A stretch of 64,000 bases of DNA from a phage: sequence record PQ327946.1. The stretch is one strand, 5' to 3'. Made by a program: the position numbers and the translations under genes. Position 1 is the stretch's first letter; every line of letters begins with the position of its first letter. Of this stretch, positions 3,811-63,738 are shown one piece after another. The notes below the pieces were generated by a model. It made no database searches, was not told where the DNA came from, and saw only the letters and a list, made by a program, of their open reading frames with translations.

Positions 3811-4443
3811 TCACAGTACGTTAGTTACAAGGGTAATGATTTCTTTGGACACATTAGGGAAGTCAATGTAAGTATATTTACCACCGATCTTAATCTTAAC
3901 ATCATTTTCAAGAGAAGTAAACAGCTTTGATTCAGTTTCTGACATGTTGTATGCAAATATTCTAAGACAACCATCTCGACGAATTTCGATCTGACGAATA
4001 CCTAGAACTCGTTTTGCAAATCGAACTTCCAAGTTACTACGGTTTTCACCAATTTCTTTAACTTCAACTTTATCTTTAATATTTTCAAAAACAAAGTTTG
4101 CTAATTCATGCATTTCGGGAGTAACTCCACGTGCTTTTCTAGTGTTACGTTTCTGAAGAAGTTCTGGAGCATTTTCTTGGGCAAAGAGGTCTGCAGCTTT
4201 TTGGATAATATCCATTGCTTCGCCTGTTGCTATAAGTCCATCACCAGATTTTTCGACTAAACCTTTCTTAATCAATACACCAATGTTAGAGTTGACAACC
4301 GATGCATTGTATTCCGCTTCCAGAGCTTCACGGACATTGGCAGCAGTGGTGAAGTTGTTCTTAATGATATAAACCATTATTGCAGCAGTTTTTTCATTCA
4401 GAGCGTTTTCAGAAGCTTTGATGATGTAAGCAACTTTAGACAT
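3811..4443 (-). CDS. motA: Middle-transcription activator MotA
   Basis: 210 aa; MSKVAYIIKAS..NSNIGVLIKKGLVEKSGDGLI..QENAPELL matches T4 MotA. Confidence 0.85.
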   Translation of the reverse strand: MSKVAYIIKASENALNEKTAAIMVYIIKNNFTTAANVREALEAEYNASVVNSNIGVLIKKGLVEKSGDGLIATGEAMDIIQKAADLFAQENAPELLQKRNTRKARGVTPEMHELANFVFENIKDKVEVKEIGENRSNLEVRFAKRVLGIRQIEIRRDGCLRIFAYNMSETESKLFTSLENDVKIKIGGKYTYIDFPNVSKEIITLVTNVL

Positions 4444-4472: not shown

Positions 4473-4511
4473 TGATAGGTCTATAATATCATGTTTGAAG
4501 CACATGTAAAC
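4473..4511 (-). promoter_or_regulatory. Early sigma70-type promoter (-35 GTTTAC, -10 TATTAT) upstream of motA
   Basis: Minus strand reads GTTTAC-N17-TATTAT-AGACCTATC; member of the repeated gataggtctataata cassette. Confidence 0.45.
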
Positions 4512-4531
4512 TGTTTTGTGAGAAAAAATGC

Positions 4532-4552
4532 ACAAAAAGGAGCCGAAGCTCC
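4532..4552 (-). terminator. Intrinsic terminator hairpin (GGAGC-UUCG-GCUCC + U tract) after gene 52
   Basis: + strand aaaaaggagccgaagctcc; on the minus transcript a GC stem with UUCG loop followed by UUUUU. Confidence 0.55.
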
Positions 4553-4629
4553 CTAATCATGTTTGTCCAACCAGTACAGCCAAATCACTAGTGCAGCTAT
4601 TGCACCGAGAAATCCTAAGGCTAGGGCAC

Positions 4630-6298: not shown

Positions 6299-6745
6299 TT
6301 AGTAACTCTGCAGAATGAATTTGAAATTATCAGCCAGAAGACGGTTCATTTCAGTGAGTGTTTGATATTCTGATGTATGGTTGCGAGTGAATGCCAGAGC
6401 CAATTGTCCTTTACCATAACCGGTAGTCAGGGGTTTCATGTTCTTAGCTGCAACAAAGATTACATCATATTCAATATTGTTAGTGCCCATAGTACGGGCT
6501 AGTTGCGAACGGCCTTGACGAATGTGAGAAAGAATTGCATCCAACCCTTGTTTAGAACGTTGACGTCCTACAAAGAATCGTGCTGCTACTTGACGCCAAT
6601 CAGATGAACCTTTAACAAAGAAGTAAAAACCTTCACGAGAACGAAACTCTTTAGAAACTTCAGAACCGTATTCGCCATTACGAACTACTGCAACAACTTC
6701 ACCGCCAACTGCCAGAAGGTCTTTACGAGTTAAATATTTGGACAT
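6299..6745 (-). CDS. ndd: Probable nucleoid disruption protein Ndd
   Basis: 148 aa ORF at the position and of the size expected for T4 ndd (between ac and denB); no motif check possible. Confidence 0.45.
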
Positions 6746-6788: not shown

Positions 6789-6818
6789 CATTATACTCTG
6801 CTCTCAAGAGTTTGTACA
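6789..6818 (-). promoter_or_regulatory. Early promoter cassette (repeat family ttatactctgctctcaagagtttgta)
   Basis: Minus strand gives TTGTACAAAC..CTCTTGAGAGCAGAG-TATAAT; a second copy is at 51228-51257. Confidence 0.4.
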
Positions 6819-6821
6819 ATT

Positions 6822-7022
6822 TTATTCGGCTATATCAGAACGTTCAAAAAGCTCTTCAACAGTTAAACATTCAGTGTCATCTTCAATAAAGAATCGAGTC
6901 CAACACGTCGGGGCGATACAGTTATGGGTTTGTCCGGCGATAGAAGCTACACGAATAAGCTGCTGACCATTATTCAGAACAAATTTTTCACCAATTTCAA
7001 CATCTTTAAAAAGCTTAGCCAT
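6822..7022 (-). CDS. Hypothetical protein (66 aa)
   Basis: Small ORF in the ndd-denB interval. Confidence 0.35.
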   Translation of the reverse strand: MAKLFKDVEIGEKFVLNNGQQLIRVASIAGQTHNCIAPTCWTRFFIEDDTECLTVEELFERSDIAE

Positions 7023-7035
7023 TTTGTGTTCCTCA

Positions 7036-7075
7036 TGTTTCAGTAGGACTACTATACCATAATCCTACCTTGTTG
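7036..7075 (-). promoter_or_regulatory. Early promoter cassette with dyad (taggactactata..aatccta + gtaaac)
   Basis: Repeat family gataggactactata; -35 GTTTAC on the minus strand. Confidence 0.4.
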
Positions 7076-7272
7076 TAAACAATTAAATTACATTAAAATA
7101 TGTTAAAGCCAACCATGATCCAGTGAACGAACATGCGATGTAAAAACCCGTATCACAAATTGTTCTTAGTACAATAATAAGTGCATTTTTCATAAGTACC
7201 TCAATACAATTGAAAATACTATACAAATCATAGGGATACTAAGCAACCATATTCCGATCCACATTTTAGAGC

Positions 7273-7536
7273 TCATATCTCAACTTCCGCGAGTTCCATA
7301 TATCCTTTGTTGATAACCTCTTTAAGGTCTTTAGAAAGAATAACACTAAAATGGTCGTTCATATGTCCATTAACCAGACGAGTTATTTCGGCTTCAGATG
7401 ACATATAAGGCACGTCTGAGTCCCAATGAGATAGACCCAAATGGGTATAAATCATCCCTTCGTCATCTGCAGTGTTGTACATTGAAACAAATTCGCCTGT
7501 TACTTTATGTTTTGCGTAGAAAAATTTAAATTTCAT
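7273..7536 (-). CDS. Hypothetical protein (87 aa)
   Basis: ORF with upstream promoter cassette at 7551-7590. Confidence 0.45.
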   Translation of the reverse strand: MKFKFFYAKHKVTGEFVSMYNTADDEGMIYTHLGLSHWDSDVPYMSSEAEITRLVNGHMNDHFSVILSKDLKEVINKGYMELAEVEI

Positions 7537-7550
7537 GATGTTATCCTCTT

Positions 7551-7590
7551 TTAGATAGGACTACTATATCATAGTCCTACTTAGTTGTAA
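7551..7590 (-). promoter_or_regulatory. Early promoter: GTTTAC-N18-TATAGT with 8-bp inverted repeat TAGGACTA/TAGTCCTA flanking the -10
   Basis: Read directly on the minus strand: gtGTTTACaactaagTAGGACTAtgaTATAGTAGTCCTAtc. Confidence 0.45.
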
Positions 7591-7604
7591 ACACTTTTAT
7601 GAAA

Positions 7605-8162
7605 TTAAAGTTGAAGATACCACCCGTTGTAGTTGCTCTTGCGGACGATTTTCTTTAGGTCTTCATGGTCTCCCACGAACTTTATAGAATAAGAGAAGAC
7701 GTCAGGTGAGGTTTCTTTGACATCTAATATAATAATGCAATCTGCGACTCGATGGTTCAAGAAGGGCCCTATGTTGATTCCGTTGCCACCTGGATAATCA
7801 CCACTGTATCCTGTGGTAACAGAAATCCATTTAGAATCTATCTGGTGTGTCTTGACTTCTACACGAATTCCACAATACTTGGGGTGGGCTAACACGTCCC
7901 ATGCATACGTGTACGGGTCTTCTACGTCTTCAATACCTTTATTAACATATCCGTCTAGCCAATTTGCTACTACATACTCTGCAAAGACCGCAACCTTACA
8001 ACGTCGAACTACATCTTCTTTGTTTTGGTCAGGATTTTGGCTCAGGGAATACCGAGCAGTGTCAGCAATCTTCACCTTCATTTCACTAGTCAAAAACTCA
8101 TTCGACAGGATAAATGTCGGAAGATTCTTCAGTCTCAACAGTCCCAAGTTCGTCTTTACCAT
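7605..8162 (-). CDS. denB: Endonuclease IV DenB
   Basis: ORF adjacent to rIIB as in T4; starting at the internal ATG (MVKTNLG, good RBS) gives 185 aa, the T4 DenB length. Confidence 0.6.
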   Translation of the reverse strand: MVKTNLGLLRLKNLPTFILSNEFLTSEMKVKIADTARYSLSQNPDQNKEDVVRRCKVAVFAEYVVANWLDGYVNKGIEDVEDPYTYAWDVLAHPKYCGIRVEVKTHQIDSKWISVTTGYSGDYPGGNGINIGPFLNHRVADCIIILDVKETSPDVFSYSIKFVGDHEDLKKIVRKSNYNGWYLQL

Positions 8163-8385
8163 AGATACCTCTGATGTGTAGTTCGCCAAAATAAATGCGG
8201 TCACCTTCTTCAAGATATTCTGCATCTACCGGTGGGATTTCAATAACAACTTCGTCGCATTCTAACCAACCATAGTGTGCATCGCCAGGATGTTTTACCA
8301 ATTTAGCACAATAAACTGATTTACACTTATGATGACCACGAAGATTAGCAATTTTGGATTCTGATACGTCAAATGGATGAATCAT
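8098..8385 (-). CDS. Hypothetical protein (about 95 aa), denB.1-like position
   Basis: Track ORF starts at a TTG inside the terminator hairpin; internal ATG (MIHPFDV) with RBS is more plausible; overlaps the denB start. Confidence 0.35.
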   Translation of the reverse strand: MIHPFDVSESKIANLRGHHKCKSVYCAKLVKHPGDAHYGWLECDEVVIEIPPVDAEYLEEGDRIYFGELHIRGIYGKDELGTVETEESSDIYPVE

Positions 8386-15355: not shown

Positions 15356-15535
15356 TTAACCCTTCTTAAGTAAGTCGTAAAAACCACCGTTCACATGTTT
15401 AGGAGCAGAAACCCGACGAGTAGACAGACGATGACATTCAGGGCAAACATCGTTTTCTCGTTCAGAAATTCTTTTAATTTTTTCATATTCATGACCACAA
15501 TCTTCAGATTGACATTTATAGTCGTATAATGGCAT
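15356..15535 (-). CDS. Small zinc-ribbon protein (about 59 aa)
   Basis: Hand-translated MPLYDYKCQSEDCGHEYEKIKRISERENDVCPECHRL..; CxxxxC..CxxC; below the track cut-off; coordinates approximate. Confidence 0.4.
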   Translation of the reverse strand: MPLYDYKCQSEDCGHEYEKIKRISERENDVCPECHRLSTRRVSAPKHVNGGFYDLLKKG

Positions 15536-16189: not shown

Positions 16190-16230
16190 GTTTTGATAGG
16201 TCTATAGTATCATAGACCATAGTTGTTGTA
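16190..16230 (-). promoter_or_regulatory. Early promoter cassette (gataggtctatagtatcatagacc + gtacaa)
   Basis: Repeat family with dyad GGTCTAT..ATAGACC around the -10. Confidence 0.4.
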
Positions 16231-16232
16231 CA

Positions 16233-16757
16233 TCATTTTAGCAAAATAAAATCAACTTGTTCTGCCAATGAACGTCTGAACATTAATTGACAACTTCCGA
16301 GGATGAAATCAGGCGCTTCATAGACCGCGATGTAGTATCCTTTAGCTTTCAAGAGTTCAACATCCACCTGGTCATCAAACCATGCATAAACCGCGTCAAC
16401 ACTTTCAAATCCAAAATAGAACCCTTGGGCCCAATCTTCACGCAATTCAAATGTGTGCTCAATTCTATAGTATCTTAAGATATTTTGTTCAAGGAGTTTA
16501 TCTTCATTTACTGTAGGACGATTAGGGACATTATAGTTGTCGCCGTGATGGTAGAAGTTACCTGAGATTATTCCATGTTTATCAAGGAACTCCCATGTTT
16601 CTTCAGAGTTGTCGGTGCCCGACCAACCGTATGGCGAACGAGGTTCTTTATTCCAAGAGGTTTCCCAAATTCTGACGGCTTTACCATCTTCGATAGCAAT
16701 TCCTGGTAATGATTCACGTTGAGTACAAAAACTACGTTCTACGCGGTAAACTAACAT
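16233..16757 (-). CDS. Hypothetical protein (174 aa)
   Basis: ORF. Confidence 0.5.
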   Translation of the reverse strand: MLVYRVERSFCTQRESLPGIAIEDGKAVRIWETSWNKEPRSPYGWSGTDNSEETWEFLDKHGIISGNFYHHGDNYNVPNRPTVNEDKLLEQNILRYYRIEHTFELREDWAQGFYFGFESVDAVYAWFDDQVDVELLKAKGYYIAVYEAPDFILGSCQLMFRRSLAEQVDFILLK

Positions 16758-16816
16758 ATTATTCTCCTCTGGTTGATATGGTTATACTATCAAAACCGGA
16801 GGAGAAGTAAACAACT

Positions 16817-17245: not shown

Positions 17246-17776
17246 TTAAGCTTTACGAGGAGACACATAGCGAGTGATTTCAGATTCTTTAACAACTCGG
17301 AAGTCACCTAAGAATACGATATTGTATAACTTTTCACCATCTTCAACCCATTGGTCACTAATGAAGCCACACATAGTATCAGTTTTGCTTGGATAACCGT
17401 ATTCGTCGATGTAATCAAATTCTTTATCGGTTACAAATTCAACGCCTTTACACAAGGCCCATTTGAACTGTACATTAGGCTCAGTGGATTCACATACGTA
17501 TCCATCACGTGATTCAACTTCTTCAACAGAAGAAAAGTGTGCAGGTGCAACTTCTTCGCTTGAAGCAAATTGGACTCGTATATGTTTTTCCAGGAATTTA
17601 GGACTTACGTAAGCATACTGGGCATCTTGTCCGCCAAAACTGGGCATGATTCGAACTTTAACTTCTTTAACAAGTCCCATGCCGTTAGTACGAAGCCCTG
17701 CGACTTCAACCAGACGACCTGCAGCTTTAGAACGAGAAGCAGGAGATACACGAAGGATTTCACCAATAGTAATCAT
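17246..17776 (-). CDS. Hypothetical protein, tandem paralog B
   Basis: Start moved to the ATG (MITIGEIL) with RBS; ..SPASRSKAAGRLVEV.. and GFISDQWVEDGEKLYNIVFLGDF. Confidence 0.55.
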   Translation of the reverse strand: MITIGEILRVSPASRSKAAGRLVEVAGLRTNGMGLVKEVKVRIMPSFGGQDAQYAYVSPKFLEKHIRVQFASSEEVAPAHFSSVEEVESRDGYVCESTEPNVQFKWALCKGVEFVTDKEFDYIDEYGYPSKTDTMCGFISDQWVEDGEKLYNIVFLGDFRVVKESEITRYVSPRKA

Positions 17777-17806
17777 ATTTTTTCTCTCTTTGTTTAAGTT
17801 GAATTC

Positions 17807-17836
17807 ATTATACTCCAACCATCCTTGGTTGTAAAC
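17807..17836 (-). promoter_or_regulatory. Early promoter cassette GTTTAC-AACCAAGGATGGTTGGAG-TATAAT (repeat copy 1 of 3)
   Basis: + strand attatactccaaccatccttggttgtaaac. Confidence 0.5.
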
Positions 17837-26207: not shown

Positions 26208-26867
26208 TTAACCTCGATTCATAAATGCATTAAATATTTGGTCATCAACAGAAATTTCTAATTCGACTTCAATTGTTTCAGCCTTTTCTTCAGGCGGTAA
26301 TTCGTATCCACACACTACAATTTTTTCATCGATATCAAAATATACAGAAGCAATACGATTAATGTTACTTTCAGTTAAGTCTAAATCAACATCAACATCT
26401 TTTTGACCTACACTTAAAGGATAACTAATACGGGTTATTTTATTATCTTTAACAAAGAGTCCACCAACATACTCTGTACTACGTTTGAAGTTTACACGTT
26501 TCCGAATTGAAAGATACGATACATCTTTACCGTGAGCTCGGCTCATAGGACATAATGAATAGCTAGAATAAGAGATGTCAAATCCTACACCTTCAATATG
26601 AGCCAACGCGTCGTGATTAAACCAATTATAATCATATGCCAAATCCATTATATTGTAATATGTGAAAGGCACCGGATTAACATCATACGTTGTACCTTTA
26701 AAATCTGCCCAGGCAACGATTTCGTTATCTTTAACAATTACAAAAATTACACCAATATGGTATCCGTTATTATTTTCATTCGGCGTTATATTATAACATT
26801 GTGCATTAGGAAATTTACCATATTTAAATGGCGCGTTTTTGTGCATGTAATAAATCATATTATTCAC
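26208..26867 (-). CDS. Hypothetical protein (219 aa)
   Basis: ORF. Confidence 0.5.
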   Translation of the reverse strand: MNNMIYYMHKNAPFKYGKFPNAQCYNITPNENNNGYHIGVIFVIVKDNEIVAWADFKGTTYDVNPVPFTYYNIMDLAYDYNWFNHDALAHIEGVGFDISYSSYSLCPMSRAHGKDVSYLSIRKRVNFKRSTEYVGGLFVKDNKITRISYPLSVGQKDVDVDLDLTESNINRIASVYFDIDEKIVVCGYELPPEEKAETIEVELEISVDDQIFNAFMNRG

Positions 26868-27153
26868 CTGTGATTTCGGTTACGATATCTTTGTTATCGA
26901 AATTAGGGTCACAATACAAAACATAGTTGTACTGCATGATACCGCCAGACTTAAGTTGTCCAACAACTTTATTAACCATATTAGGACGGTCTCGTTTAGT
27001 GATGTTCATGATATCAGAGAAGATTTGTTGTTCAACATCTTCTTGATTTGCAGTCATTGACCACTCACAGAGGTCTTTATCATAACCTGCTGTAACTGGA
27101 GCTGGTGCACATGATACTGCAAGTAAGATTGCTGCCAATGATAACTTTTTCAT
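26860..27153 (-). CDS. sp: Spackle-like periplasmic protein (signal peptide)
   Basis: 97 aa with N-terminal signal peptide MKKLSLAAILLAVSCAPAP; same length and genomic position as T4 Sp (61.3). Confidence 0.55.
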   Translation of the reverse strand: MKKLSLAAILLAVSCAPAPVTAGYDKDLCEWSMTANQEDVEQQIFSDIMNITKRDRPNMVNKVVGQLKSGGIMQYNYVLYCDPNFDNKDIVTEITGE

Positions 27154-27164
27154 TTTAACTCCTT

Positions 27165-27210
27165 AGTTGATTTGATAGGACTACTATACTATAGTCCATC
27201 TATAATGTAA
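27165..27210 (-). promoter_or_regulatory. Early promoter cassette (gataggactactatactatagtcc + gtaaac)
   Basis: Third copy of the TAGGACTA dyad promoter family. Confidence 0.4.
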
Positions 27211-27216
27211 ACAAGT

Positions 27217-28213: not shown

Positions 28214-28382
28214 ATGCTTTAACTAATGCTTTGTTCACTTCAGCAAGTTGTACCGTAACCCACTCGATTTCTTCACGGTCACCTGATAACATGATATCTT
28301 TAGTGAACATCTCGCCGCTTTTAAACCAACCGATAAAAGTAACTTTAGTTAATTTGCTCATATTTCCTCGCAAAATGCCCAT
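28170..28382 (-). CDS. Hypothetical protein (70 aa)
   Basis: ORF. Confidence 0.4.
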   Translation of the reverse strand: MGILRGNMSKLTKVTFIGWFKSGEMFTKDIMLSGDREEIEWVTVQLAEVNKALVKAFVNDEKVFEADFRG

Positions 28383-28675
28383 TCAGCGTGATAAACTGTA
28401 GCACCTTTAGTATTATTCATTTGAACTACGTCTACCGGAGAAATTACTCGATAGAGACGTGGTTCACCTCCGTAAGAGCGTGCTGCTCGTCCTGCATAAA
28501 TCTTTGCTAAACCGATATCTTCGGTAAAGAATACACGGTCCAAGTTTTTCTTACGTCCAGTTTCAGACAGAACTCCTGTTTCCTCAGGAGGACAAAGCAT
28601 GTTTTCGATGTTAGCTGAACTACTTGAACCGTGATAAAAAATCTTAAATTCTGCTTTACAATCGATGGTTTTCAT
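28358..28675 (-). CDS. Hypothetical protein (105 aa)
   Basis: ORF. Confidence 0.45.
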   Translation of the reverse strand: MKTIDCKAEFKIFYHGSSSSANIENMLCPPEETGVLSETGRKKNLDRVFFTEDIGLAKIYAGRAARSYGGEPRLYRVISPVDVVQMNNTKGATVYHAEWAFCEEI

Positions 28676-28682
28676 TTTGTTC

Positions 28683-28715
28683 TCCAGTAGTTGATAGGTC
28701 TATAATAACACAACT
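28683..28715 (-). promoter_or_regulatory. Early promoter cassette (agttgataggtctataataacac)
   Basis: Repeat family gataggtctataata. Confidence 0.35.
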
Positions 28716-28730
28716 ACTGGAGAAGTAAAC

Positions 28731-29162: not shown

Positions 29163-29192
29163 ACCCCGAAAGGAGACCGAAGTCTCCTTTTT
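29163..29192 (-). terminator. Hairpin (GGAGAC-UUCG-GUCUCC) after gene 41
   Basis: + strand ccccgaaaggagaccgaagtctccttttt; palindromic stem with T-runs on both sides. Confidence 0.45.
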
Positions 29193-47688: not shown

Positions 47689-47917
47689 TACATGCTTCAG
47701 CCATTTTAAGAATAGAACCAGGAGTATCGTTGTCCATTATATTAAAGCTAAATTCAATAGCCCAGTCGGTGCAGACATGAACTGCTTTAACTTCATTGCC
47801 TTCAACGCGTAATGGCTCAATCCAATACTTGATAGCGTTCTCAAATCCATCATCGTCTTTAACGTCCATTTCAACTTCAAGTCCAAGCCCAGCATTGTTA
47901 AATTCATCTAAAGTCAT
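47660..47917 (-). CDS. Hypothetical protein (85 aa)
   Basis: ORF. Confidence 0.45.
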   Translation of the reverse strand: MTLDEFNNAGLGLEVEMDVKDDDGFENAIKYWIEPLRVEGNEVKAVHVCTDWAIEFSFNIMDNDTPGSILKMAEACIEDAYNDED

Positions 47918-50494: not shown

Positions 50495-50530
50495 AATTCA
50501 TAGGTCTATTATATCATAATATTTAGAGAC
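50495..50530 (-). promoter_or_regulatory. Promoter-like cassette (cataggtctattatatcataa..agacctatc)
   Basis: Member of the gataggtctataata family, upstream of gene 55. Confidence 0.3.
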
Positions 50531-50633
50531 CTATCTTAAAGCACGAGATACTATCAAAGATACGTAACTTTCATAAAGTTGTCGACTTAAAATTCACCAA
50601 ACTTTTCTTCGGTTATAGCGATTCAAGATAGTT

Positions 50634-51227: not shown

Positions 51228-51257
51228 ATTATACTCTGCTCTCAAGAGTTTGTATAC
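51228..51257 (-). promoter_or_regulatory. Early promoter cassette (second copy of ttatactctgctctcaagagtttgta)
   Basis: 26/27-nt identity with 6789-6818. Confidence 0.4.
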
Positions 51258-58275: not shown

Positions 58276-58580
58276 TATAATGTTCTCTCAAATTTGTGGA
58301 AGCATTTACGGCATTTCAATTTCAAGTTATCAGTGGTCCAGTTAACCAGTTGGACTTGGATAGTTCCACATTCCGGACATGGATGTTTTGCTGCCGATTT
58401 GGCAGCATTTTCACGTCGTTCAACCATTTTCATTATTTCGTTCCATGCCGGAGGAACGAACTCTTCTTCACCGTGGATTTTATCTCGCTGAACAAATTCA
58501 ATCTTTGAACTATCGTCAATAAACTTAACCAAGCCATGATTAGTGCTCATATCAATATCCTCTAAAAGACGTAGTTTCAT
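58275..58580 (-). CDS. Zinc-ribbon protein (101 aa)
   Basis: CPECG..CRKC motif. Confidence 0.5.
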   Translation of the reverse strand: MKLRLLEDIDMSTNHGLVKFIDDSSKIEFVQRDKIHGEEEFVPPAWNEIMKMVERRENAAKSAAKHPCPECGTIQVQLVNWTTDNLKLKCRKCFHKFERTL

Positions 58581-59524
58581 TATAACACCTCAATGGCATT
58601 TCGTAAGCCATCCGCTTTCGCATTCAGAGCTTTTAACGATTTAGTTTGTTCTGCAATCTGGGCTTCGACTTCTTTCAGACGAGATTTGAGATATTCGCGT
58701 TCTTCTCTTAAGTTATCAACTTTTTCTGCTTTAGGCTCTTTAATAGGCTTATACTCATTAGGGTTCTTCAACTTAATTTGAATGCGAGAACTGTATAACA
58801 TTGAACCGTTATCTTCGGTTTCGCTGAACATTTCAACAACATCCATAGTCTGTAATATCATACGAAGTTTATAAGACAGCGAACTAACGGTTTTGTTGCG
58901 CTTATTAATTTCTTCGGCTTTCATGGTACCGAGATTACGTGAGTAGTAATAAGGAACCTGGATATCAATTGACAATGATGCGTTACCATTACCAGTTGGT
59001 TTGAATACTGCAGTAACCCAATCTTTAACATGAACTTTATTTGTACGACCGTCGCCGCCTGTGAATAATTTACGTGAATGTTTAAAAAGCATATTCACTT
59101 GGTTATTGAATTCACAAGCAAATTTATCAGCAAATTTAGTTTCAGGAATGGTAGATAACCAATCAGCTAAATAGGTCTTTTTAACATCGTTAACAATAGT
59201 AAATTCAACCAAATCGGTTATAGATGTCGCAGTTTTAATGAATCTCGGCTTCATAAAGTTTTTAATGTTATCGCGAGCTACAGTAGAAGATAACATACGA
59301 GAACGTTTAAACCATTGAAGCAAATTGCCCAACGAATGAGAATAAGCGTTCTGTGTATCTTTACAGATATGATTTTCTTGACCTGTGTATGTACCAAAAT
59401 CGCGAAGAATACCACTTACTACAACTCGGTGTGGAACATCAAATCCTAATGAACCGGAAGCACGTTGGGCATGAACGTTAGCGATAAGACCTGCAAAATA
59501 ATCAACATAATGTGAACGTGTCAT
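58580..59524 (-). CDS. Hypothetical protein with C-terminal coiled coil (314 aa)
   Basis: Globular N-domain plus heptad-rich tail ..LREEREYLKSRLKEVEAQIAEQTKSLKALNAK.. Confidence 0.55.
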   Translation of the reverse strand: MTRSHYVDYFAGLIANVHAQRASGSLGFDVPHRVVVSGILRDFGTYTGQENHICKDTQNAYSHSLGNLLQWFKRSRMLSSTVARDNIKNFMKPRFIKTATSITDLVEFTIVNDVKKTYLADWLSTIPETKFADKFACEFNNQVNMLFKHSRKLFTGGDGRTNKVHVKDWVTAVFKPTGNGNASLSIDIQVPYYYSRNLGTMKAEEINKRNKTVSSLSYKLRMILQTMDVVEMFSETEDNGSMLYSSRIQIKLKNPNEYKPIKEPKAEKVDNLREEREYLKSRLKEVEAQIAEQTKSLKALNAKADGLRNAIEVL

Positions 59525-59552: not shown

Positions 59553-59583
59553 ATTATACTCCAACCATCCTTGGTTGTAAACT
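59553..59583 (-). promoter_or_regulatory. Early promoter cassette GTTTAC-AACCAAGGATGGTTGGAG-TATAAT (copy 2)
   Basis: + strand attatactccaaccatccttggttgtaaac. Confidence 0.5.
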
Positions 59584-59586
59584 GAT

Positions 59587-60519
59587 TTATGATTTTAATG
59601 CATTCATTGCGTTAAAAAGTTTAGAGTACTGCAACTGGAGCTTGGTAACTACTTGTTGAGCATCACGAAGCTTAGCTTGTGCTTTGTCAAGTTCAACAGA
59701 CAGTTGGTCCACAGTGCCTTTGATTTGATTATAATAGTAATCTTCGGCAGGAAGAAGACCGTTAGAGATTTCCAGTTTAGTCGACGGTGTGCCGTTAAAC
59801 ATAACAGGTTGTGCTGAAGCTGCATTAATCTTACCGATAGTTGGGGCGACAATAATTGACGCTTCGAACGTTGCATTTTCCTTTTTAAGATTTTGATAGT
59901 ATTCAGAGTCTTTGTGCCACCATGGCGCAGGAACCTTTTTACCAATAGATACACGAGCCTGGATAGCGATATGGCCCTTATTCTTGATAGGGTTGATAAT
60001 ATTAAGCTCACGAGAATAAATTGCTTTAATCTGGTGAATATTATCACCTAGCACTTCCAACGCTTGGTGGAATACACGAGCAACGTTATCATTCTTAGGT
60101 TTATACGTAAGAGTGAACTCGTTCTCACTGATAACCATGATTTCCAACTTATCGTAAGTATATTTCAAATGTTTCATGTTAATTGCTTGAGGACGAATAC
60201 GAGAAGCAATGGCCATCAGATTGTTAAGGTTATTCCGGAACTGCTTAGCGAAATATTGTCCTTCATCGCCAATACAAAAATTACGAAGTTTCTGTTTGGC
60301 TAATAAACGGCTGAACTCACCATTTTTAATGAACTCTTTAACGGGTGTGTTAGTAACGCATTCAAATTGAGTAAACTTACGAGAAGTAATCCCATAATAT
60401 GAACAGATTTCCTCAATCTCTTCAGGAGTCTTTACAGGCATACGGATAGGATTAGGACCTGGGGTATATGCGTTCGAGGTAAATTCTTTGATAAGTTCTC
60501 TACGTGTAATAGAAGCCAT
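59587..60519 (-). CDS. Hypothetical protein with C-terminal coiled coil (310 aa)
   Basis: C-terminal ..QLSVELDKAQAKLRDAQQVVTKLQLQYSKL.. Confidence 0.55.
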   Translation of the reverse strand: MASITRRELIKEFTSNAYTPGPNPIRMPVKTPEEIEEICSYYGITSRKFTQFECVTNTPVKEFIKNGEFSRLLAKQKLRNFCIGDEGQYFAKQFRNNLNNLMAIASRIRPQAINMKHLKYTYDKLEIMVISENEFTLTYKPKNDNVARVFHQALEVLGDNIHQIKAIYSRELNIINPIKNKGHIAIQARVSIGKKVPAPWWHKDSEYYQNLKKENATFEASIIVAPTIGKINAASAQPVMFNGTPSTKLEISNGLLPAEDYYYNQIKGTVDQLSVELDKAQAKLRDAQQVVTKLQLQYSKLFNAMNALKS

Positions 60520-60544: not shown

Positions 60545-60575
60545 TATTATACTCCAACCATCCTTGGTTGTACAT
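60545..60575 (-). promoter_or_regulatory. Early promoter cassette (copy 3, -35 variant TGTACA)
   Basis: + strand attatactccaaccatccttggttgtaca. Confidence 0.45.
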
Positions 60576-62160: not shown

Positions 62161-62169
62161 GTTTTACCT

Positions 62170-62215
62170 CCAGTAGTTGATAGGTCTATAATAACATAAC
62201 CATAGACCTTGTAAA
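62170..62215 (-). promoter_or_regulatory. Early promoter GTTTAC-N17-TATTAT-AGACCTATC-..GGAGG
   Basis: Minus strand GTTTACaaggtctatggttatgtTATTATagacctatcaactactGGAGGtaaaacATG. Confidence 0.5.
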
Positions 62216-62218
62216 CAA

Positions 62219-63651: not shown

Positions 63652-63690
63652 TTCGATAGGTCTATAATAACATATCCTAAAAGCATGTAC
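63652..63690 (-). promoter_or_regulatory. Early promoter cassette (ttcgataggtctataataacat..gtacac)
   Basis: gataggtctataata family. Confidence 0.35.
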
Positions 63691-63720
63691 ACCACTTTTT
63701 AAAAATATTTTATCCCCCTA

Positions 63721-63738
63721 AAGGGCCTTCAGGCCCTT
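63721..63738 (-). terminator. Hairpin AAGGGCC-(UGAA)-GGCCCUU after the last ORF
   Basis: + strand aagggccttcaggccctt. Confidence 0.4.

Follow-up and report, generated by a model that had tools for sequence, protein, structure and literature searches.

The stretch of DNA analysed here (sequence record PQ327946.1; 64,000 nucleotides (nt), hereafter the window) comes from a phage, and the element under study is a 30-nt promoter cassette on its minus strand at positions 17807-17836. The window shares 96-98% identity with RB69-group Mosigvirus genomes (e.g. ST0, S143_2, HX01) and, based on this identity, corresponds to the early region of a Mosigvirus similar to RB69 and ST0, a T4-like phage. The plus strand carries gp38/t, which is followed by a long minus-strand early region with the gene order asiA-motA-52-ndd-denB-rIIB-rIIA-39-motB-dexA-dda...43...nrdC.x, in agreement with that of T4. 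The focal element lies between dexA and motB, and near-identical or structurally similar cassettes, each combining a promoter with an inverted repeat, recur in the ndd-denB, 61-41, motB and nrdC.x regions, several of them in front of open reading frames (ORFs) without a T4 match.

Four families of early promoter cassettes

On the minus strand, the cassettes read GTTTAC, a spacer of 17-18 nt, TGnTAnnnT (containing TATAAT, TATTAT or TATAGT), a short leader, a Shine-Dalgarno (SD) sequence and ATG. A few copies contain a one-base variant of the -35 element (GTGTAC, GTATAC, TTGTAC or ATGTAC). The initial annotation of the window had described sigma-70-type promoters 5' of minus-strand genes, with a -35 element GTTTAC(A), a 17-18 nt spacer and one of these three -10 hexamers, and both the consensus and the strand bias bear this description out. 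Matches to the pattern GTTTAC-N16-19-TAnnnT number 20 on the minus strand of the window and two on the plus strand; when an SD sequence with ATG and an AT-rich upstream region are also required, the window retains 18 matches on the gene strand, the T4 early regions have 29 and JS98 has 13, with 0 on the other strand in each of the three. The depositors of NBG1 (MH243438) label the orthologous copy of the focal element "promoter"; the T4 RefSeq record holds no promoter features. By consensus and strand bias, the cassettes are T4-type early promoters.

Four repeat families are observed, none of which is expected in dinucleotide shuffles. The family A 30-mer (ATTATACTCCAACCATCCTTGGTTGTAAAC, 0 copies expected) is exact at 17807-17836 and 59553-59582 and matches at 28 of 30 positions at 60546-60575. 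Family B (GATAGGACTACTATA) is exact at 7554 and 27174 and has two mismatches at 7042; family C (GATAGGTCTATAATA) is exact at 4474, 28693, 62179 and 63655, with one mismatch at 16195; the family D 26-mer (TTATACTCTGCTCTCAAGAGTTTGTA) is exact at 6791 and 51229. Every element of the four families that had been proposed was located, with several coordinates shifted by 1-10 nt. For the family C copy reported at 50495, an element is indeed present (50500-50534) and is a looser variant only. The promoter elements of the window are the following.

17807-17836, minus strand: focal family A promoter, 5' of the motB ortholog (17246-17775); -35 GTTTAC at 17831-17836, -10 TATAAT at 17807-17812.
17770-17836, minus strand: whole focal cassette from the -35 element to ATG, read below as a recombinant joint.
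59553-59582, minus strand: family A promoter, 5' of an nrdC.3-like ORF (58580-59524); identical to 17807-17836 at 30 of 30 positions.
60546-60575, minus strand: family A promoter, 5' of a novel ORF (59587-60519); degenerate -35 ATGTAC.
7556-7592, minus strand: family B promoter, 5' of a novel ORF (7273-7536); -35 at 7587-7592, -10 TATAGT.
7044-7080, minus strand: family B promoter, 5' of the ndd.1 ortholog (6822-7022); dyad TAGGATTA/TAGTCCTA.
27176-27212, minus strand: family B promoter, 5' of the sp (spackle) ortholog (26860-27153); 6-bp dyad GGACTA/TAGTCC, z -2.1.
62161-62216, minus strand: family C promoter, 5' of the nrdC.8 ortholog; dyad AGGTCTAT/ATAGACCT, -28 to -21 with -8 to -1.
28676-28730, minus strand: family C promoter, 5' of a novel ORF (28358-28675); a 14-bp helix in place of the AGGTCTAT/ATAGACCT dyad.
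16195-16233, minus strand: family C variant, 5' of the cef ortholog; ATGTAC ... TACTAT AGACCTATC.
4474-4511, minus strand: family C promoter of motA (3811-4443); no AGGTCTAT arm, weak within-spacer hairpin CATGT/ACATG.
63655-63692, minus strand: family C promoter (GTGTAC), 5' of the nrdC.10 ortholog; dyad decayed, no AGGTCTAT arm, canonical terminator hairpin just upstream.
6790-6819, minus strand: family D promoter (TTGTAC ... TATAAT), 5' of ndd (6299-6745); dyad GAGAGC(10)GCTCTC, -22 to -17 with -6 to -1.
51228-51257, minus strand: family D promoter (GTATAC), 5' of the gene 55.2 ortholog; 5' arm GAGAGC intact, 3' arm degraded (TCTATC, 4 of 6).
16758-16812, minus strand: early promoter, 5' of a motB.2-like ORF (16233-16757); spacer CTCCTCCGGTT pairs with AACCAGAGGAG, which holds the SD sequence.
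50500-50534, minus strand: 8-bp dyad ATAGGTCT(19)AGACCTAT, 5' of the gene 55 ortholog; no GTTTAC -35, MotA-box-like TGCTTTA.

The last element is probably a middle rather than an early promoter, because it lacks GTTTAC and contains a MotA-box-like sequence.

A discriminator and leader, TAYTAT-AGACCTATCAACTACTGGAG, is common to early promoters of three genera. It is found in the window at 28676-28701, 62161-62187, 4474-4482, 16195-16203 and 63655-63663, in T4 at 15413, and in JS98 at 47865, 17961, 18918 and 11180, and the predicted transcripts of these promoters all start with AUCAACUACUG(A)GGAG. The shared discriminator and leader indicate that conservation of the cassette spans the -35 element through the SD sequence.

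Promoter stems exceed chance pairing

Pairing of the spacer takes three forms in the window: with the -10/discriminator region at 7592, 7080, 27212, 62216, 16232, 6819 and 50520, with the leader and SD sequence at 28730 and 16812, and within the spacer itself in family A. In the focal copy, the spacer hairpin is CAACCA-AGGA-TGGTTG at 17816-17831. At 7592, an 8-bp dyad TAGGACTA(8)TAGTCCTA (7556-7579) brackets the -10 element, and the RNA fold has an energy of -15.4 kcal/mol (z -2.9); at 7080, the dyad has 7 bp and one U.G pair on the sense strand (fold z -2.9). The cef promoter contains the dyad GGTCTAT(6)ATAGACC at 16199-16218. The helix at 28730 joins 14 bp of the spacer (28711-28724) to the leader and SD sequence (28680-28693), with a duplex energy of -23.5 and z of -6.4, and the spacer/SD helix at 16812 has 10 of 11 pairs (duplex z -4.0) and is also present in ST0. 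Thus, the dyads described in the initial annotation are found at 7592, 7080, 27212, 62216, 16232, 50520 and 6819 and in the family A spacer; they are missing or decayed at 4511, 63692 and 51257, and a different helix replaces the expected one at 28730.

T4 and JS98 share this architecture with quite different sequences. Examples include a 13-bp stem around the -10 element of the T4 ipII promoter, GTTGACAAGATTA/TAATCTTGTCAAC at T4 57990 and TTCCTCTTGACTG/CAGTTAAGAGGAG at the regB promoter. For the pairing statistics, 60 promoters from the window (18), T4 (29) and JS98 (13) were used. The mean duplex energy of the -35 element and spacer with the segment from the -10 element to ATG is -11.2 kcal/mol for a promoter's own two halves, versus -7.8 kcal/mol for swapped halves (p=1e-4). 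Energies of -14 kcal/mol or lower are reached by 28% of own pairs and by 4.9% of swapped pairs, 32% of promoters have their own partner in first or second place among 59, and 40% of promoters have z<-2 against spacer shuffles. When within-promoter hairpins are counted together with spacer-downstream dyads, 33 of the 60 promoters contain a structure at z<-2. An unbiased profile of pairing probability around +1 shows a modest peak over the spacer (-30 to -11, 0.60-0.64 versus 0.51-0.53 in controls); in the same profile, the excess of pairs that span +1 is not significant (p=0.09).

Covariation across genera

Orthologous promoters were compared using the ndd-denB intervals of seven genera, taken from GenBank phage records. 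In the family D helix, which joins -22 to -16 with -6 to +1, the arms are GAGAGC/GCTCTC in the window, GGGACC/GGTCCC in T4, GGGGTC/GACCCC in VR26, AGAGCC/GGCTCT in JS98 and CGAGAATC/GGTTCTCG in IME281. Across these sequences, the fraction of cells that pair is 95%, compared with 70% for shuffles (0/500) and 40-50% with the partner slid, and both sides have changed in 6 of 7 pairs, across four genera. The family A hairpin behaves similarly: CAACCA/TGGTTG in the window corresponds to CATCCA/TGGATG in ST0 and JS98, CCACA/TGTGG in T4 and ACACCA/TGGTGT in IME281. In this set of eight sequences, hand-picked and centred by eye, 92% of cells pair versus 60% in shuffles (0/500), and both sides have changed in 4 of 6 pairs. 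Likewise, in the orthologs of the motB.2 promoter (window/ST0, T4 and JS98), the spacer pairs with the SD sequence in every case and does so by different sequences.

These compensatory substitutions show that the dyads are conserved in related phages, the point on which the initial annotation had made its own proposal depend, and its view that they are additional to what sigma-70 recognition requires is accepted. As judged from the swap and shuffle controls and the covariation, the dyads are real and under selection for pairing. Pattern scans of IMG/VR with variants of families D and B returned 1 and 8 loci, respectively, nearly all of them non-homologous; the family B pattern had a spacer one base short.

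The focal cassette as a recombination joint

In ST0 and NBG1, an additional ORF of ~490 bp (ST0 gp102) lies between dexA and motB and is flanked by two family A promoters. The window lacks this ORF and has a single copy. Within 17770-17836, the segment through the -10 element matches the dexA-proximal family A promoter of ST0, and the segment after the -10 element matches the distal ST0 copy. Based on this match, with one junction of this kind examined between close relatives, the focal cassette is a recombination joint, a chimera of two family A cassettes of the promoter-early stem-loop (PeSL) type that has been described for T4-related phages (see below). The stop codon of dexA is placed 5 nt upstream of the focal -35 element, and no terminator is found between dexA and the focal promoter. 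Directly 3' of the family A hairpin (TGGTTGGAGUAUAAU), at 17813-17816 on the minus strand and likewise in the copies at 59553 and 60546, is GGAG, which is the tetranucleotide target of the T4 RegB endoribonuclease; it is a candidate site in read-through RNA only.

The copies at 17807-17836 and 59553-59582 are 41.7 kb apart and identical at 30 of 30 positions, and a single-base difference (T to C beside the loop) separates them from the dexA-proximal ortholog in ST0. That the two copies are identical despite this difference suggests recent gene conversion between them within the genome. Their identity ends exactly at the -35 and -10 elements (17836 and 59582 copies), and the ORFs behind the three family A copies, namely the motB ortholog, the nrdC.3-like ORF and a novel ORF, are unrelated. 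The motB promoter belongs to family A in the window and to family D in T4 and JS98; family D drives ndd in the window, VR26 and IME281. By these comparisons, promoter families are not tied to genes, and one gene has different families across genera. Independently of the stems, unrelated genes are preceded by near-identical stretches of 30-70 bp, and these would provide short homologies for T4 recombination, by which cassettes could be added, deleted or exchanged. Orthologous promoters of the Enterobacter phage fGh-Ecl04 (1311) and the Citrobacter phage Moon (1382) share the leader agactagaaatcaactaacggaga and differ in the spacer, which pairs with the SD sequence over 10 bp in one of them (TCTCCGTTAG) and folds into a within-spacer hairpin in the other (CCACatggaaGTGG). 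A change of stem type is possible with the leader kept constant.

Site of action of the stems

The 5' arm of the stem always lies between the -35 and -10 elements, upstream of +1. As a result, the promoter's own transcript does not contain the hairpin, which can form only in RNA read through from upstream or in DNA. The suggestion in the initial annotation that the repeats could be sources of 5' leader hairpins is thereby not supported. Folding is stronger for the sense than for the antisense strand (mean -11.2 versus -9.9 kcal/mol; Wilcoxon p=0.01), and in the strong dyads G.U pairs account for 37 of 343 pairs on the sense strand versus 20 of 315 on the antisense strand, a tolerance that modestly points to action at the level of RNA. 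About half of the strong dyads (~13-15 of 24) contain the SD sequence. A helix that includes the SD sequence or AUG and has its 5' strand upstream of the start site is found in the window at 28730, 16812 and 62216 (outer helix), in T4 at 8218, 53943, 62797, 65413 and 166808, and in JS98 at 7810, 40587 and 47865; the stems of families A, B and D are not of this kind. In folds of the read-through RNA, the SD sequence is inside the helix at 28730 (-21.5 kcal/mol, z -4.5) and 16812 (-18.8 kcal/mol, z -4.45), and it is paired by the outer helix at 62216 (-21.1 kcal/mol, z -3.65).

Taken together, these features make it probable that the cassettes are early promoters read by host sigma-70 and built in the composite PeSL form, and that the stem acts as a nucleic-acid structure. 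Host sigma-70 RNA polymerase would read the cassettes immediately after infection. Their parts follow in the order of an upstream stop codon, an AT-rich UP region, GTTTAC, a spacer of 17-18 nt, TGnTAnnnT, a short conserved leader, the SD sequence and ATG, with the inverted repeat built in. We infer that the stem acts as a structure in nucleic acid rather than as a protein site, most probably in transcripts of upstream early promoters that run through the cassette, since RNA started at the promoter itself does not contain the 5' arm. If the SD sequence is part of the 3' arm, the hairpin would prevent the downstream gene from being translated from read-through RNA, and the gene would be expressed essentially only during firing of its own early promoter. 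For a 3' arm that ends near +1, or a hairpin within the spacer as in family A and the focal copy, our best guess is that the stem marks and insulates the boundary between cistrons; such a boundary stem is a candidate attenuator, pause site or 3'-end barrier.

The SD sequence is buried in about half of the strong stems and a U-tract follows none of them, which suggests translational gating of read-through RNA rather than termination. We tentatively propose, as a possibility that the present comparisons leave somewhat short of even, that in T-even-type phages roughly a quarter of early promoters have a spacer that is the anti-SD strand of their own gene, which would constitute a genome-wide, hard-wired "immediate-early only" gate in which PeSL stems are translational insulators and not terminators. 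No description of systematic spacer/SD pairing at early promoters was found in the accessible PeSL and T4 regulation literature, the older T4 promoter literature lying outside this scope. If the stems do gate read-through translation, this would help explain why synthesis of many T4 early proteins stops abruptly, and it would explain how inserted gene cassettes leave their neighbours undisturbed. According to reviews, the shut-off of T4 early promoters is not fully understood (PMC2988021, PMC3014915).

Several observations weigh against the main explanation. No significant hairpin is present in 27 of the 60 promoters, which indicates that the stem is not obligatory. The family A hairpin, which includes the focal one, is weak (-6.9 kcal/mol) and in its 81-nt RNA context folds no better than shuffles (z -0.3 to -0.8), so that its support is the covariation, drawn from the hand-picked set described above. 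The asymmetry between sense and antisense strands is modest, and hairpins in DNA remain compatible with it. Internal dyads and canonical upstream terminators, which would be expected to complement each other, do so only as a trend (below), and the terminator role put forward by the PeSL authors is unsupported for T4-type stems, which have no U-tract. Finally, both the start sites and the read-through RNA across the promoters are, for this phage, predictions from sequence alone.

Alternative explanations for the dyads

The initial annotation had also considered that the dyads could be sites for a regulator. As operators, they would bind a dimeric protein (a phage MotB-like or unknown repressor, or a host H-NS-like protein) that switches the early promoters off. 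Their position is suitable, since they bracket or overlap the -10 element, where a repressor would be effective; the mechanism of T4 early promoter shut-off is stated to be unknown (PMC2988021; PMC3014915), and AGGWCTA/TAGWCCT arms recur in several promoters. However, the recurrent TAGWCCTATC belongs to the promoter/start-site consensus and is also present where no second arm matches it (4511, 63692 and many JS98 promoters). Arm sequences unrelated to one another number more than 10 (e.g. GAGAGC, GGGACC, GGGGTC, TAGGACTA, GTTGACAAGATTA, CCTAGAATTGTGA and CTCCAGTAGTTG), loop length varies between 4 and 19 nt, and the position of the 3' arm varies between the spacer and the SD sequence, with no fixed half-site, spacing or position. 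Orthologous promoters change both arms and still pair, and G.U-type mismatches are tolerated preferentially on one strand. This variety is that of selection on pairing and not on a recognition sequence, and an operator is very unlikely. Even more improbable is that the dyads are functionless, chance features carried along in the duplication of a small number of founder promoters. Since the copies of one family are near-identical, their dyads are not independent events, and the 27 promoters without a significant hairpin would fit such an origin; against it, independent families and orthologs in at least four genera have different arms at the same positions with both sides changed, and the swap and shuffle controls are strongly exceeded.

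Two further explanations, each unlikely and about equally so, keep the stem as a structure and move its site of action. In DNA, hairpins or cruciforms could form in supercoiled or single-stranded replicating molecules, with the -10 element in the loop, or could be a target for a nuclease or recombination enzyme (e.g. endonuclease VII) that stimulates cassette exchange. Compensatory covariation is equally expected of DNA hairpins, most spacer/discriminator dyads do hold the -10 element in their loop, the crossover of the focal joint is at or beside the -10 element, and a structure-targeted recombinase was raised as a possibility by the PeSL authors (PMC2839356). On the other hand, neither the better folding nor the G.U enrichment of the sense strand is expected of DNA cruciforms; AT-rich stems of 5-8 bp with loops of 8-19 nt extrude poorly, from general knowledge of cruciform energetics; the reach of half of the strong stems to the SD sequence would be meaningless in DNA; and short homology suffices for T4 recombination, which makes a structure unnecessary (PMC2839356). 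Alternatively, the stems could be terminators or attenuators of upstream transcripts that insulate each cassette, as proposed for the PeSLs of RB49 and phi1. One GC-rich PeSL stem of phi1 reduced lacZ read-through as much as rrnB T1 (PMC2839356), promoter-coupled terminators are reported as a common feature of bacteria (bioRxiv 10.64898/2026.08.19.745784), and canonical upstream terminators are found at 10 of 36 promoters without internal dyads versus 3 of 24 with them, although this exclusion is only a trend (p=0.21). The stems themselves are short and AT-rich, the 8 nt after the 3' arm contain a mean of 1.96 T versus a background of 1.93, with five or more T in 0 of 24, and a terminator scan of the sense strand calls none of them.

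Canonical GC-rich tetraloop terminators precede dyad-poor promoters of the window, all on the minus strand: GGGAGCTTCGGCTCC-T5 (4530-4560, motA), GGGCCTGAAGGCCC-T3 (63700-63730, nrdC.10) and GGAGACTTCGGTCTCC-T3 (29165-29190, after gene 41). On the plus (antisense) strand, the family B and C dyads at 7556-7579 and 16199-16218 are called terminator-like, with the spacer supplying the T-rich tail, and dyads of these two families might stop antisense or late-strand transcription that enters the early region. The terminator annotated in ATK47 was considered and set aside: it is the canonical one downstream of ndd and not a dyad.

Comparison with known systems

As promoters, the cassettes do not differ from the T4 early promoters (the Liebig & Rueger/Wilkens & Rueger consensus, PMC2988021; RB69 predictions, PMC1524935). 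They share GTTTAC at -36 to -31, a TGn-extended -10 element, an A-rich UP element, the C-rich -3 to -1 of RB69, and a position 5' of early genes and novel ORFs. For RB69, a consensus of early promoters with C at -3 to -1 has already been published (PMC1524935). Reviews of these promoters mention "additional regions of consensus" and not inverted repeats.

The composite of a promoter and an overlapping stem-loop, by its sequence features, is the published PeSL, a real and already known element that has been described as aiding gene exchange in T4-type phages; the initial annotation did not make this identification. PeSLs were described as small cassettes in which an early promoter is combined with a stem-loop (Arbiol et al. 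2010, PMC2839356) and were extended to T4/PST, with TTTACW-N17-TAYWAT promoters (Comeau et al. 2014, PMC4122927). All of the sequence-level features that were compared, namely the stem-loop in the promoter, the cassette bounds and the cassette-bounded indel, are present in the window. As in PeSLs, an AT-rich region lies upstream of the early promoter, the SD sequence and start codon form the 3' end and an upstream stop codon the 5' end, and the stem-loop is placed between the -35 and -10 elements or overlaps the -10 element, with G-T pairs allowed. The cassettes are also concentrated in hyperplastic regions before small or novel ORFs, and recombination between copies results in indels between close relatives, here between the window and ST0/NBG1 at the focal copy. 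The published PeSLs are those of RB49/phi1 (TTGACA promoters and polyG/polyC stems), T4/PST and KVP40/nt-1, with the RB69 group not made explicit. Stems of the window type differ in being AT-richer and without U-tracts, and about half of them reach the SD sequence; the 2010 paper does not take up SD masking, and the word "translation" is absent from it (PMC2839356). For AT-rich stems that lack U-tracts, a terminator role appears unlikely as judged by sequence. For the window, the gain is one of annotation, with 16 promoter elements placed and one recombination joint explained, and not new biology; the function of the stem could matter, and PMC2839356, PMC4122927 and PMC3014915 leave it open or assign it to termination.

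Promoter-coupled terminators (Fletcher et al. 2026, 10.64898/2026.08.19.745784) resemble the cassettes in that a palindrome overlapping a promoter serves both the upstream and the downstream unit. In those elements, the stem DNA provides the -35 element, a T-tract lies in the spacer and 3' ends are ~10 bp upstream of the start site, whereas the stems of the window lie downstream of the -35 element and have no T-tract. A parallel for the SD-pairing stems is the hairpin control of T4 e, soc, 49 and I-TevI, in which long read-through transcripts are translationally silent and the proximal transcript is open (PMC3014915). There too, the 5' strand of the SD-sequestering helix is upstream of the proximal start site. 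Those genes use late promoters (TATAAATA) and silence early read-through RNA, whereas the proximal promoters of the window are early (GTTTAC/TATAAT). By analogy, the same logic would be reversed in time in the window, with expression only while the early promoters fire.

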